Source: Sporopachydermia quercuum (Eukaryota). Taken from it: DNA of 64,000 nt. Position numbers and translations under genes: made by a program. The notes beneath the pieces were generated by a model that saw nothing but the letters and a program-made list of their open reading frames with translations, ran no database searches and was not told the origin of the DNA. Of this stretch, positions 24,939-57,564 are shown one piece after another. Position 1 is the stretch's first letter. Each line of letters opens with the position of its first letter. The stretch spans positions 1,364,001-1,428,000 of the forward strand of contig BCGN01000001.1 of NCBI GenBank assembly GCA_001599295.1, read 5' to 3'.

Positions 24939-26669
24939 CTAGGCTATGGTATCGATATTGCAAGACCATCCAGATGCACTTGGATCAATTAAAGGCAAAG
25001 ACGCTCCTAAGCACCATCCCAATTCATTGTTCCTAATCTTCTTAGCGATCTTAACTTCTCTACTTAATGGAATATCATAACCAGTATGGAGCATTGATAA
25101 GATGAAGTTCAGATCTAAACACCAATGAGGCTCTGCTAATAATTCATCAACTGCACCATCCAAGGCAGCAAAAATATTGTTCCAGGTCTCAGTTCCTTCA
25201 CAGACGCCTTTAGCTAAATCAAACAATTCTTCGATAGTGAAGCTAGATGGCATACCAAGGGGAAAAGTTCTATCGTAGAAATAGGAAAAGATAAAGATAT
25301 CACTGTCTTTAAGGTAGTTTCTAGTAAGTGATGGTTGATGAATGCCGTTGAAACTACACGGTTCTTGTGGGCATTCGGCATCCTTGTTTAAAACACTTTC
25401 AGCGATGAATCTACACTGAGTTCCAGAAGGTGTATCAGGGCCAACAAAGTTAACAATGTAGGTATCTCCGTTTTCGAATTTCACTTTAACATTATCGGCA
25501 GTAACACCAGGAGGAATACAAGGACTTACTAATGTTGCAGTTGCTTTAGCATTAGGATCTGTCGCAGGAACAAGATCTTTGGCTTTCTTACCCTTCAGAT
25601 GACCTTGAACAATAGCAGCGTTGATCTTATTTCTTCCTTCCATGAGACCATATCCAAGATGAGACCATTGGTATAAAGTGAAATCTCTATTACCAAATTG
25701 TAAATCATACTTATGCTCACCTTCTGTCATTTCTTGATTCTTCAAAGAATCAAACTCTGGTTCAAAGACGATCTGAGTCGATCCACCACCTAAGTCAAAC
25801 ACAGCAGCGGTTGGGATCTTAGAGGAAGAGCCAATGTTACCAAGCAAGTAGTTGGTGGTAATCCATGCATAAACACCTTCATCTTTACCACTCATAATCT
25901 CGATACCACTACCAGGAACAACAGGAAAAGGATAATCATTTTCTAAATGGCTTCTAACAGCATCCAATATGGCATCAGACTTAGTTTCGCCTAATAATCT
26001 GAGACCAGCAGTTGCTTTAACAGCAACTGGTGAACATGCTTGATAGTTTTCAGGAATTGACTTCAAAGCTACTTCCAATAAAGGATCTAAACTTTTAGCA
26101 GCCCCAACAGAATCAGTATCAAAACTTGATAAACCAGGTTTTAACATTTCAAAGTCTTCCTTAATCAGCTTGGGGACTTCATCACAGGTATCAAAATGAT
26201 AAACGTGGATTCTAGAACCAGTTGAACCAGCATCAATCATAATAACGTATTGGTTAGTCTTATCCGCAGTGCACGTAGACTTTTCAACATCTTCAAGATT
26301 GGGATCACCTTTCGTCTTAGACTTGGGATTGGTCTTAGCTTTTGGCTTAGTTTCGGTATCTTTTAGACGTTTAGTATCCTCCTTGGGTTCAGCAGCTTCT
26401 TCTTCTTCTTCAGTAGCCTCTTGTAATAACTTTTGAGATTCAGGCTTACTGGTTGGTGTTGATTTATTGATATGCTTATGCTGTGTTGAATCGTCTTCAG
26501 GTACTGGCAAAAAGTTGTTGTCAGGTTTGGAACTCTCTTCTTGTGATAACTTGTAGGACTCGAGACTTTTAACAGAATCAACGCTGGATTGTCGAGAGAT
26601 GAAAAATGTTATCAAGATCACTAAAGTGACCAAGAAAATCAGCCGGAAACTTTTAGCCGGAGCAGCCAT
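24939..26669 (-). CDS. GDA1: Golgi guanosine diphosphatase (GDA1/CD39 family)
   Basis: N-terminal TM anchor; apyrase-conserved regions [25 protein letters not shown] and GWCLG. Confidence 0.92.
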
Positions 26670-27566
26670 CTTTTTAATATATTTTATCGAACTATTAGAA
26701 TATAGTTGGTCTACAACCTGTAAATGTTTCTATGTTTGTAGACGTGAATGTAAACCCAAAAGTAAGATTGCGATTTCTGAGCTCATAATACCTATTACAT
26801 ATAATTGAACACGACTCAGCCCACGAACCAGGAATTAAATACAAAAAACCCAACCACTGCAGTAGACTAACTATTAGAGTCAACTCAAGTTGCACCTTGT
26901 TTAATACTCAACAAGGTACTATGAACCATCAGATAAAGAAGTTCAGGCTCTTTTGTCCAAAATGCATATCTTTCTCTGTCGTTCGCGTCCAATAGGTCTG
27001 TTACATGCATAATACATATTAATTGATTACATGATCAGTACTTATGAAGAAAAAGAAACAAATGATTGCTGTCTCTTTTCATGTAGAACTGCAAGTACTA
27101 TCTATCACTAAGACAACCAAAAGTAAGTCTAGAACTTAGACCCTATTCTAACCTTATTCACTTGTTAAGGAAAGGATGAATGCAGCTTATTCACACGACA
27201 GGAGAAATGAAGAGGAAAAAACTTTTAACAGTTTCTGCTGTAAATGAATAAAAGCAAAATACAATATGCATTTAAAGAGAAAAGAGGACTCCTCACGCCG
27301 TAAGTGAATATTCATTTAAAATGGTACTCTTTCTGGAGATTCCATTGCAGATGTGACTAGGAGTACAATTGTGTCTGTATGAGTATAAAATAAGTCATTA
27401 TAAGATTATTGTTTTATTTTTATTGTCATCTTATTTGACTGAGGTAGATCTAGTTATTTGGTTGGAAGTGAATAGCATTGTATTGAATCCAAGAGGTAAG
27501 AAGATAAGAGCTGAATCTATCTGAAGGTTTGCTATCTTGTGACTGGGAAGCAAAACAGATTTTACA

Positions 27567-29864
27567 ATGGGAGAACTATCATCACAGGCATCATATGCTG
27601 TAACGTTTGTTACCTATGGGTTATTCCTGGTATTAGGTGTAGCTATATCATTATGGAAACTTAGTGATAAACAGTTTTTAAGTGGAAATGGCACTCAGAA
27701 AGGTATGAATTATATGATTGTGAGGAGGTGAGGTAATGAGGTGATGGGGTGATGAGATAAGGAACCTGCATTGACTCATAATCTGACCTTTTATGAGGAA
27801 ATCAATAATATGCATATCTTTTCAATACTAACAGAAGTATAGCTTTGCCTCTAGCGTTTAACTTTGTAGCATCAGGTCAGTATATTTCATAAAATGGGTG
27901 CAGGACGTAACAACCGCATTGTAGTAACGAATAGATCACCTGAAGACTTACTTACTTTACTCTATGGCCAAATGTTGTATTTGGTCTCAACATATTGGTA
28001 TTCTGTGTATATGTTTTTTCTCAATTGAAAGTGAAAAGTTCCTCGATGAAAATCCTTTTCTCTTTTATAACAGTCAGGTTATACACAGAGTTAGTGAAGT
28101 AACAACGGGTGCCATCATTAGTAGCTATCATGATTTGATGATATCAATGATTGGAGTGTTCTCAATGAGAGGCTGAGATGATACCGCTTGGACTCGAACA
28201 AGATAATACTTGCGTGAGAACTGTTACTGCACATCATTATTTCTTTCATTGCATTATTTGTCGAAGAATTGAAGTCTAATTGGGTTGTTCATGAGCGTTA
28301 TACTAATTGGGTTCTTTAAGACTTTATTCTTAGTACCAACGGTCTCTGACATTCAATTATAACCATTTTCCTCAACTGATCAATAGTGCGATGAGTAATG
28401 AATTTACTTCAACTAACAATCTATTTAGCGATGGGTGCTGGTATCTTGACGACGTATCCTGATGTCACTGCTTGGGCAGGTTTACAAGGACTGCTTGTAT
28501 ATGGGCTTGCTTCATCTTTACCAATAATGCTTTTTGCATTTGCTGGTCCTGCAATCCGTAAAAGATGTCCTGATGGATTTGTTCTAACTGAATGGGTTTA
28601 TCAAAGATATGGCTTAGTTGCATCTTTATATCTGAGTTTATGTACCATTTTAACCATGTTTTTATACATGACTGCTGAATTAACGTCTATCCAATATGCT
28701 TTTGAAGCTTTAACAGGACTAGATGCTTTGTCAGTAATGATTGTTGAGTGTGTTGTTACAACTATTTATACATCTTTAGGTGGTTTTCATATCTCTTTCT
28801 TGACAGACAATGTTCAAGGAGCAATGATATTCTTGTTATTGATCATTTGCTCAATTGCTATTGGTGTTAATGTTCACGTTGACACAAGCTTAGTACAATC
28901 GACTGGAATGCTTGATTCTACAGTTTTAGGCTGGAAGCTGGTTTATATTCTTCCTGTAGCAATTGCTACTAATGATTGCTTCTTGTCCGGATTTTGGCTT
29001 CGAACTTTTGCTTCTAGAACTGATAAAGATTTGATCATTGGATGTTCTATTGCCACTGTGGTCATATTTGTATTCTTAACATTGGTTGGTTTTACAGGAT
29101 TGTTAACCGTGTGGTCTGGTATGCTTCCACCGCAATCCGATCTGGGATCCACATCATTTTTCATAATTATTACTACAATGCCTTCTTGGATCATTGGTTT
29201 CGTTCTTGTTTTCACGGTTTCATTATCAACAGCAGCTTTTGATTCTTTACAATCGGGAATGGTCTCCAGCATCTCTAATGATTTTTTCAGAAACAAGTTA
29301 CCTATGATTTACGTTAGAATTATTGTTGTTCTCACTATGGCTCCAGCAATTGTTGTTGCCCTTAAAGCGCCAAATGTCCTTCAAATTTTCTTGATTGCTG
29401 ATTTAGTTTCATCTTCTGTTATTCCTGTTTTATTCTTGGGATTATCGAAAAGATTTTATTTCCTCTCTGGTTTGGAAGTCGTTGGAGGAGGATTTGGAGG
29501 AATCTTAACAGTCTTCATCTTTGGAACAATCTATTATGGCTCTGCTCGTGAAGGAGGAAGACTACTCATCTTGTGGGATGGATTGTATGTTGATAATTGG
29601 GGTCCTTTTGGTGCCTTCATTGCTGCTCCTGTAGGAGGAGTGATATCTGGTTTCATAATTCTTGGGGTTAGATCTTTGGTTACATATATCTATTGCAGAG
29701 TCAAGAGCAAAGAATTCACTATTTTCGACAAACCAGACGACTCGCAAATAATTACACCTACCAATTATACCAGAGTAAAGAAACGGGATGACAACGAATC
29801 TTTACTTATTGATAATGATACATCAAAAACTTCTTTCGCTGAATCTACCAAACAAGTGGACTAG
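27567..29864 (+). CDS. DUR31: Solute:sodium symporter-family transporter, Dur31/NCU01977-type (probable thiamine or precursor transporter); exons 27567-27702, 27843-27875, 28429-29864
   Basis: The spliced N-terminus MGELSSQASYAVTFVTYGLFLVLG...FLSGNGTQKALPLAFNFVASAMGAGILTTYP is phase-consistent. Many TM segments. Intron 2 contains a TPP aptamer, as established for this family. Confidence 0.85.
28098..28228 (+). ncRNA. TPP (thiamine pyrophosphate) riboswitch aptamer in intron 2 of the transporter
   Basis: P1 AGTAACA/TGTTACT; GGGTGCC...GGCTGAGATGATACCG core; P4/P5 CTC-GAA-CAAG-ATAATA-CTTG-CG-T-GAG, matching the TPP consensus. Confidence 0.93.
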
Positions 29865-31033: not shown

Positions 31034-32164
31034 ATGTCTACTACAGCTACCTCAGAAGCCCTTAATAGTCGCTATAAGAGAGTCAGCGAAGGGCACATTT
31101 TGGACAGCGTAGACGACGATGTTCAAGCAGTTAATAGGTTAAGAAAAAAGATTAGGAGAGAATCATTATCAGGTGAAGATGGCTACAAGAATGGAGAAAG
31201 AAGCGAGAAGAAATCTATCGAGTCAAAACTTTTACCCGTTGATGAGACTGTCTCCTTCACTGACGAGAAAGTGAAGCAAACAGTTTTTCCTTTGAGCAGC
31301 AATTCACCAGAGAGTCAGTCAGGTGATGAAGCGGGATCTTCAAAACCTAGTGACTTCGATGATAATTATTATAAACAAGCTAAGAATAAAGATGCATTTC
31401 GACAGTATGAGTTGGCATGTTCTAGAGTCTCTAAGTTTTATAGAGAACAGCATGCCAAACAAACTGTAGCGTTCAATATTCAGGCTCGGGTCAACTTCAA
31501 AACGAAAATGAGAGCAAAGTTATCTATTTGGGACGCATTAGAAAAGTTGAATCGACTTATTGATCAATCTGATCCCGATACAGAATTATCTCAAATTGAT
31601 CATGCTATTCAGACAGCCGAAGCAATAAGAGGAGATGGGAAACCAAGATGGATGCAACTGACAGGTCTGATACATGATTTAGGAAAGTTATTATATTTTT
31701 TTGATGCAGAAGGTCAATGGGATGTGGTAGGTGATACTTTCCCAGTTGGCTGTAAATTTTCAGATAAGATTATTTTCCATGATTATTTCAAACGCAATCC
31801 TGATTATCATCATCCAATATATTCTTCTGAATATGGAATTTATGCCCCTCACTGCGGTCTTTCAAATGTGATGTTATCTTGGGGTCATGATGAATATATG
31901 TTTCATATTGCTAAAGCACAATCAACACTGCCTGATGAGGCTTTAGCCATGATTAGATATCATTCTTTTTACCCATGGCATACAGAAGGTGCATATAAGC
32001 AGTTAATGAACAAAGATGATGAGCTCATGTTAAAAGCAGTTCAAGAGTTTAATCCTTATGATTTATATTCAAAAACAGATAAAAAGTATGACATTGAATT
32101 ATTGAAGCCTTATTATTTAGAACTAATTGACGAGTTTTTCCCTAATAAAATTGTGGAGTTCTAA
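31034..32164 (+). CDS. MIOX: myo-Inositol oxygenase
   Basis: DQSDPD, HAIQTAEAIR, GLIHDLGK, SWGHDEY and IRYHSFYPWH di-iron motifs. Confidence 0.95.
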   Translation: MSTTATSEALNSRYKRVSEGHILDSVDDDVQAVNRLRKKIRRESLSGEDGYKNGERSEKKSIESKLLPVDETVSFTDEKVKQTVFPLSSNSPESQSGDEAGSSKPSDFDDNYYKQAKNKDAFRQYELACSRVSKFYREQHAKQTVAFNIQARVNFKTKMRAKLSIWDALEKLNRLIDQSDPDTELSQIDHAIQTAEAIRGDGKPRWMQLTGLIHDLGKLLYFFDAEGQWDVVGDTFPVGCKFSDKIIFHDYFKRNPDYHHPIYSSEYGIYAPHCGLSNVMLSWGHDEYMFHIAKAQSTLPDEALAMIRYHSFYPWHTEGAYKQLMNKDDELMLKAVQEFNPYDLYSKTDKKYDIELLKPYYLELIDEFFPNKIVEF

Positions 32165-57370: not shown

Positions 57371-57564
57371 GTATGTTAATATTGGAACTCTTTCAGTCTA
57401 AGATATGTTTCAATATGACGAGAAAAGTTTGCTGTGCACCAGTCCGATAGGGAAGTACTCTCCCTTCTATGAGGTTATTCAAATATACCCAAATTTCTGA
57501 TCCAAAAACTATCTTAGACTCAACTTTCGTTCAGGCTATGAATTTGTTTACTAACTTTTATTAG
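57371..57564 (+). other. Spliceosomal intron of a putative non-coding snoRNA host transcript
   Basis: GTATGT 57371, TACTAAC 57549-57555, TAG 57562-57564; TATATAAA at 57199-57206; no flanking ORF. Confidence 0.8.
57411..57503 (+). ncRNA. SNR40: Box C/D snoRNA, snR40-like, intron-encoded
   Basis: Box C ATGACGA 57415-57421, D' CCGA 57444-57447, C' ATGAGG 57469-57474, D CTGA 57497-57500. Guides GCTGTGCACCA (antisense to 18S UGGUGCAUGGC) and TATACCCAAATT (antisense to 25S AAUUUGGGUAUA). Confidence 0.88.

Follow-up and report, generated by a model that had tools for sequence, protein, structure and literature searches.

A candidate intronic TPP riboswitch of the Neurospora NCU01977 kind in the DUR31 ortholog of the budding yeast Sporopachydermia quercuum

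Studies of the Neurospora crassa gene NCU01977 characterized an intronic element, alpha, that in the absence of TPP forms a helix with the 3′ strand of P1 and is commonly found less than 60 nt away from the first donor. As set out by Li & Breaker (2013, PMC3597705), this alpha-alpha′ helix runs to 11 or more uninterrupted pairs in almost every species, with pairing outweighing sequence. Riboswitches of the NCU01977 kind are named ‘Type II’ by Mukherjee (2018, PMC5882874), a class recognized by an alpha′ less than 60 nt from the acceptor and by two or more alternative donors located before the aptamer. In parallel, DUR31 riboswitches are described as widespread in budding yeasts by Donovan (2018, PMC5997356), where riboswitch-controlled splicing is shown for the C. 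parapsilosis intron, the thiamine transport activity of Candida Dur31 is backed by the pyrithiamine resistance of deletions, and the splicing mechanism of the yeast DUR31 riboswitches is stated to be unknown. A yeast switch has already been assigned to Type II in print: C. orthopsilosis is so listed by Mukherjee (2018, PMC5882874).

The window analyzed here, a 64,000-nt stretch of Sporopachydermia quercuum DNA, contains a DUR31/NCU01977 ortholog with a TPP aptamer in its second intron. The riboswitch class is well known, and this copy keeps the Neurospora exon layout. The element is very probably a functional TPP OFF switch of splicing, and the evidence tips towards an intronic switch like that of NCU01977 (‘Type II’ of Mukherjee) that would control a Dur31 thiamine importer. 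We infer ligand binding, the change of state and the splicing outcome by analogy with NCU01977 and with the DUR31 switches of C. parapsilosis and O. polymorpha.

The gene model consists of three exons separated by two introns:

27567..27702, + strand: exon 1 of the DUR31 ortholog, with its ATG at 27567 (45 codons plus 1 nt), matching the N-termini of homologs
27703..27842, + strand: intron 1 (140 nt; GTATGA...TACTAAC...TAG; phase 1)
27843..27875, + strand: mini-exon 2 (33 nt), encoding ALPLAFNFVAS
27876..28428, + strand: intron 2, the riboswitch host (553 nt; GTCAGT...AACTAAC...TAG; phase 1)
28411..28428, + strand: branch sequence AACTAAC (28411-28417, branch A at 28416) and acceptor TAG, by sequence motif
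28429..29864, + strand: exon 3 (477 codons), opening with MGAG and ending in TAG

Removal of both introns yields an open frame of 534 aa, which bears out the limits and the 553-nt length that the initial annotation had given for intron 2. In the spliced N-terminus, both junctions are gapless against 13 of 14 chosen homologs, with 27-36 identities over the 55-57 aligned residues of exons 1 and 2; the 14th homolog lacks this region. Intron 2 was also said to be the longest intron reconstructed in the window, and it does top the 14 motif-defined candidate introns with a donor, the next measuring 480 nt by this heuristic. An in-frame stop lies 15 nt into intron 2 (codon 62), so that retention of the intron, or use of any downstream donor, would give a 61-aa product. 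The host, a budding yeast, uses the standard genetic code: four of the five CTG codons fall in columns that are mostly Leu in the homologs, and a CUG-Ser code was rejected on this ground.

Orthology to DUR31/NCU01977 is supported by sequence comparison. A search with exon 3 returned 1440 matches at E <= 1e-30 among 8000 candidates, the 120 listed being 53-66% identical and the best named ones coming from Trichomonascus, Geotrichum, Lipomyces, Babjeviella and Nadsonia. Clade V as given by Donovan (2018, PMC5997356) holds proteins of several species among these best matches, and the listed homologs include clade V species as matched by species name, not accession. Exon 3 alone gives no match to the SSF family model PF00474 at E 0.001 (18.3 bits vs a cut-off of 22.8), and most listed homologs carry PF00474; in a quick 38-row tree, the protein sits on a long branch outside any well-supported set. 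The only other match to the ortholog in the genome is a Dur3-like SSF paralog, 22% identical over 138 aa. This paralog, a transporter of 684 aa, is encoded ~120 kb upstream on the same contig (locus L003, 121-2175, - strand).

A thiamine-related function had been proposed at the outset for this putative urea/polyamine transporter. The proposal gains support, by analogy, from DUR31 orthology and from the literature on Candida Dur31, uptake having been shown for the Candida orthologs only. The broader statement that Candida DUR31 is riboswitch-regulated holds for C. parapsilosis and others but not for C. albicans, whose DUR31 is described as having no riboswitch (PMC5997356). On its sequence, a ‘urea/polyamine transporter’ may be relabelled as a TPP-controlled importer of thiamine; its genome has THI4, and no THI5 or other TPP riboswitch was found there. 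A THI5 ortholog was sought across the genome assembly, which may be incomplete; the sole NMT1/THI5-family match (locus L037, 1294-2250, - strand) is the ortholog of PDB 2X7P, titled ‘possible thiamine biosynthesis enzyme’ (E 7.7e-101, vs E 1e-4 for THI5). Because THI5 was not found, import of thiamine or its pyrimidine would, we infer, be essential, and the gene set, which also includes a THI20-like gene with a TENA domain, suggests that the yeast depends on an outside supply of one or the other. Near THI4, a Ca3427-like gene and six of seven NCS1 loci, no TPP match was found at E 0.1. The TENA-domain match (locus L045, C8:1267170-1267916) holds three TAA stops and one NCS1 permease match (locus L041, C1:1002855-1004174) holds two stops, in each case pointing to introns or a broken gene. 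The neighbours of the DUR31 ortholog, a GDA1/CD39 nucleoside phosphatase (24939-26669, - strand) and a myo-inositol oxygenase (31037-32164, + strand), include no thiamine gene cluster.

The aptamer is made up of the following elements:

28098..28228, + strand: TPP aptamer by RF00059 match, with P1, P2 core, P4 and P5 paired
28098-28104/28222-28228, + strand: P1, 7 bp
28105-28108/28184-28187, + strand: P2, with an A.C mismatch at its base
28112-28171, + strand: P3 insert, 60 nt, between GGGUG and GCUGAGA
28175-28179, + strand: GAGAU pyrimidine motif
28193-28196/28215-28218, + strand: P4
28199-28202/28209-28212, + strand: P5, with L5 at 28203-28208
28212-28214, + strand: GCG pyrophosphate motif

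The covariance check that had been proposed gives a significant RF00059 match at 28095-28238, covering all 105 model positions (E 1.6e-8 in a scan of 27500-28600), though its 49.9 bits lie below the Rfam gathering cut-off of 54.3 bits. For this reason a default Rfam scan misses the aptamer, and such a scan of the window returned snR40 alone. A search of the organism's own genome (15 contigs totalling 16.4 Mb), in which 49 of 556 candidates were scored, yielded this single TPP match, with a genome-wide E of 5.6e-8. Fungal copies are not defined by this cut-off, because the aptamer of a related yeast locus, L004, and one of the three N. crassa TPP switches in the search of Donovan (2018, PMC5997356) also score below it. 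The ligand-recognition features described by Mukherjee (2018, PMC5882874) are intact, namely GAGAU, GCG, UAAU in L5 and the 18-nt G-G spacing.

P1 lies exactly where the initial annotation had placed it, and the extended P3 reported there is indeed a long insert, somewhat longer than the ~55 nt claimed. The J4/5 letters (28196-28198) do read GAA, as remarked earlier; as an oddity this was rejected, since 7 of 47 DUR31 aptamers in S2 Fig of Donovan (2018, PMC5997356), counted by eye, carry GAA, among them that of O. polymorpha, for which thiamine control was tested. The mismatch A28105.C28187 at the base of P2 is more unusual: A.C occurs in none of the 45 readable rows of the same figure, 44 of which are paired at this position and one A.G (two further rows, one truncated and one misaligned, are omitted from the count). 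Folded by itself, the aptamer is mildly stable (z -1.54). P3, intron 1 and the hairpin downstream of the aptamer were each considered as hosts of a snoRNA; this was rejected, since their best Rfam matches (E 0.37, 0.099 and 3.8, respectively) score far under cut-off.

The donor of intron 2 departs from the genome's preferred GTATGT and GTAAGT:

27873..27883, + strand: donor S1, CAG/GTCAGTAT, non-consensus at +3

GTCAGT was seen at none of 37 TACTAAC-anchored sites (264 kb) and in none of 26 short candidate introns, so the earlier description of a ‘weak GTCAGT donor’ is right as to its non-consensus letters. Its weakness, in turn, is not established, because the 5′ end of the organism's U1 begins AUACUUACCUG and CAG/GUCAGUAU agrees with it at 10 of 11 positions. 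The corresponding match is 8 of 11 for the intron 1 donor and 4-9 for the 26 short candidate introns, which are motif-defined and will include some false ones. No other GT in intron 2 reaches a U1 match of 7 of 11; weak GTs are found at 27907, 27998 and 28078. That RPL30 of S. cerevisiae shares a GTCAGT donor was not confirmed in the papers searched, one of which calls its donor non-consensus.

A listing of all helices of at least 7 bp gave a candidate for alpha. The candidate elements of the expression platform are:

27920..27929, + strand: candidate alpha element, 44 nt past the donor, forming 10 bp with 28222-28231 (3′ strand of P1)
27898..27913, + strand: second, bulged alpha-like partner of the P1 3′ strand (duplex of -12.2 kcal/mol)
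27952..27961, + strand: candidate beta element, pairing with 28093-28102 (P1 5′ strand) and nested in alpha-alpha′
28000-28011/28080-28091, + strand: 12-bp helix that places beta beside P1
28090..28102, + strand: anti-branch stretch (5′ flank plus P1 5′ strand), complementing 28404-28417 over 13 bp with one bulge
28234..28402, + strand: long hairpin with a 14-bp closing helix (28245-28258/28382-28395), which folds away the spacer between aptamer and branch

Six helices were tested against shuffled sequences; only alpha's position was predicted by the literature, and the tests are not independent because several helices complement the same P1 letters. When the upstream intron was shuffled, an alpha as good appeared within 60 nt of the donor in 7 of 2000 trials and anywhere upstream in 34 of 2000, and in 2 of 120 whole-fold shuffles the P1 strand was captured close to the donor to an equal degree. 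In the free fold of 27860-28440, alpha-alpha′ is part of the minimum-energy structure and has a probability of 0.68, vs 0.003 for P1. Over six folded segments, the alpha-alpha′ probability was 0.68-0.84 in three, 0.35-0.39 in one ending at 28240, and 0.01-0.33 in two with longer exon flanks; P1 reached at most 0.03 in any of the six. The bulged second partner ranges from 0.00 to 0.63 and is minor in most segments.

The support for beta is weak (45 of 1000 shuffles), and the 12-bp helix beside it was matched in 18 of 500 shuffles, with a probability of 0.42-0.98. The beta region (27944-27962, + strand) repeats ACTTAC/ACTTTAC, letters identical to the U1 5′ end, so that it could also pair with donor-like sequences. 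Downstream of the aptamer, 28233-28410 folds as a single hairpin (z -3.41; 0 of 200 shuffles), whose closing helix was equalled in 6 of 500 shuffles and has a probability of 0.92-0.93 in all four segments that contain it. With this hairpin formed, the distance from alpha′ to the acceptor falls from 197 nt in line to ~30-50 nt. Taken over its full length, the intron shows no unusual stability (z -1.29). A short inner P1 combined with the full branch helix was considered as the TPP-bound state and is disfavoured, the outer P1 re-forming at 0.83-0.93.

Direct comparison with NCU01977, using the sequence in the supplement of Mukherjee (2018, PMC5882874) and made by eye, reveals a 33-nt mini-exon in the same phase and, at both of its ends, introns in matching positions; the aptamer lies in the second of them. 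The two loci thus share an orthologous gene, a mini-exon of equal length, the flanking intron positions and a long coding-region intron; in both, a partner of the P1 3′ strand follows soon after the first donor, and all products other than that of S1 stop early. Unlike NCU01977, the present host is a budding yeast, and its alpha is A/U-rich, with mismatches at three of nine positions of the published RGCGGYRRY, a motif that three other 9-mers of the intron fit better. The alpha-alpha′ span is ~300 nt here vs ~500 nt there. The aptamer sits mid-intron here, 197 nt from the acceptor and bridged to it by the hairpin; U1-matching alternative donors S2-S4 are missing, and extra beta and anti-branch complements occur. 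In a pairwise alignment by eye, nine core pairs of the N. crassa alpha-alpha′ are kept, with three two-sided and two one-sided changes, a comparison that is no more than suggestive because, measured from P4, the register is shifted by 2 nt.

With the DUR31 genes of C. parapsilosis (CPAR2_502100) and O. polymorpha, as described by Donovan (2018, PMC5997356), the locus shares the gene family, a 5′-proximal coding intron and a stop in the retained intron; with O. polymorpha, it further shares the GAA J4/5 and a single evident donor. Its differences are a longer intron (553 nt, against 351 nt in C. parapsilosis), one more intron and a mini-exon further upstream, a non-consensus first donor, where C. 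parapsilosis has GTATGT, and a candidate long-range platform. A metagenome scan for relatives returned four loci, of which one, the yeast locus L004, has a TPP match; a search of viral contigs returned none. L004 carries a 469-nt intron (2030-2498, + strand) at the same position, with an aptamer of 52.2 bits ~27 nt past the donor and with alpha absent, hence another layout at the same intron position. An intron-containing tRNA gene (1456-1543, + strand) lies upstream of DUR31 in L004.

In the mechanism that we propose, P1 would be open in the absence of TPP, its 3′ strand pairing with alpha (27920-27929) and its 5′ strand with beta (27952-27961). Together with the constant downstream hairpin, this pairing would bring the donor and a free branch site together and, because of this juxtaposition, the intron would be spliced and the 534-aa transporter made. 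Upon TPP binding, P1 would close, alpha and beta would let go, and donor use would fall; as there is no strong alternative donor, the intron would be mostly retained, leading to the 61-aa product and probably to nonsense-mediated decay. In this model, alpha-alpha′ is reasonably likely to be the main platform of the switch. Its placement is that given by Li & Breaker, less than 60 nt from S1 and against the 3′ shoulder of P1, in an intron with intact ligand motifs, a significant RF00059 match and the mini-exon and intron positions of NCU01977. The kept core pairs and the place of alpha-alpha′ in the minimum-energy fold point the same way, as do a donor-to-branch path of 9 steps in the alpha fold vs 22 in the aptamer fold, and a branch site fully freed by forcing alpha (masking 0.0). 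The apparent lack of THI5, by which import should matter, fits an OFF switch as well. Several observations weigh against it. With longer exon flanks, alpha is poorly populated and a helix from P1 to the branch prevails; forcing the aptamer raises the ensemble energy by 7.6 kcal/mol over that of the free fold, a high price for TPP binding unless there is co-transcriptional capture or an error of the energy model. The mismatches to RGCGGYRRY, the shifted register, the long in-line distance from alpha′ to the acceptor in place of less than 60 nt, the ordinary stability of the intron, the sub-threshold aptamer score and the A.C at the base of P2 also count on this side, as does L004, the single related intron obtained, which has no alpha.

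Branch-point masking as the main OFF step is an unlikely reading. It supposes that, without TPP, 28090-28102 would be held by beta and the 28000/28080 helix, and that TPP would close P1 and displace beta, the freed GUUAGU (28090-28095), stacked on P1 and kept near by the hairpin, then pairing with 28412-28417. The anti-branch helix covers the branch A at -14.4 kcal/mol, was equalled in 11 of 2000 shuffles and tops all 19-mers of the intron, and in a local fold of 28085-28428 with full P1 forced, the 5′ flank pairs with the branch in the minimum-energy structure. The alpha/beta state abolishes the masking. For algae, branch-point pairing has been predicted, according to the introduction of Donovan (2018, PMC5997356): in those intronic TPP riboswitches, too, a stretch beside the riboswitch complements the branch site, but they belong to another gene and another lineage, and the masking modelled here occurs mainly in P1-open states. 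In whole-intron folds, forcing any part of P1 gives masking of only 0.01-0.28, whereas leaving P1 open and forcing only P2, P4 and P5 gives 0.32-1.0; because the modelled masking belongs to P1-open states, it would give the wrong logic for an importer. The helix is a post hoc find among several, and is partly expected because the letters that it uses are complementary to 28404-28411 and to the P1 3′ strand alike. A combination of both devices is about as doubtful. In such a double lock, the Neurospora alpha-alpha′ bridge would be kept, re-lettered by compensatory changes, and branch masking would be added on TPP binding: in the ON state, partners nested upstream would keep both P1 strands occupied, and with TPP the freed P1 5′ flank would pair over the branch point, drawn near by the constant 170-nt hairpin. 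Searches of the open literature found no description of a platform joining donor-branch bridging to branch masking in fungi, and no paper testing alpha-alpha′ or branch masking in yeast DUR31.

It is rather improbable that a working TPP OFF switch operates here without either long-range helix, for instance with P3 occluding the donor locally, or through a mechanism no better defined than those of C. parapsilosis and O. polymorpha. For local occlusion, 27870-27879 can pair with 28131-28140 of P3 (39 of 1000 shuffles), but the probability of this donor:P3 helix is at most 0.09, and P3 is dispensable in N. crassa according to Li & Breaker (2013, PMC3597705). The thiamine control found in yeasts with one donor and the view that long-range pairing is unlikely in C. 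parapsilosis, both from Donovan (2018, PMC5997356), speak for such a switch, as does the alpha-less L004. Very improbable is a decaying, non-functional aptamer in a gene under promoter control or none. The low covariance score, the A.C pair in P2 and a P1 unformed in the free ensemble would suit decay, and riboswitch losses are described as ongoing across yeasts by Donovan (2018, PMC5997356); yet every ligand-contact motif and every P4 and P5 pair is intact, the L004 aptamer and one N. crassa switch are likewise sub-threshold, and a switch needs P1 open without ligand. Returning to the alpha-alpha′ OFF switch, the intron is a convenient test of the persistence of this pairing in budding yeasts, because its helices are named and mutable and such introns are reported to work in S. 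cerevisiae.

Three further features were observed. An intronic ATG (28398-28400, + strand), placed within the 3′ arm of the long hairpin, shares the reading frame of exon 3, which is open from 28395; on RNA that is unspliced or starts internally, it could give rise to a 488-aa product without the first 57 residues. Just 5′ of the aptamer, 28055-28083 (+ strand) consists of a pyrimidine tract followed by TATAACAG-TCAG-GTTATA and resembles a cryptic acceptor abutting a donor; a good branch sequence is absent, and use of this putative acceptor would give a stop within 10 codons (by eye). The C/D snoRNA snR40 (57411-57502, + strand; 64.2 bits) lies within a motif-defined candidate intron (57371-57564) and is probably intron-hosted.
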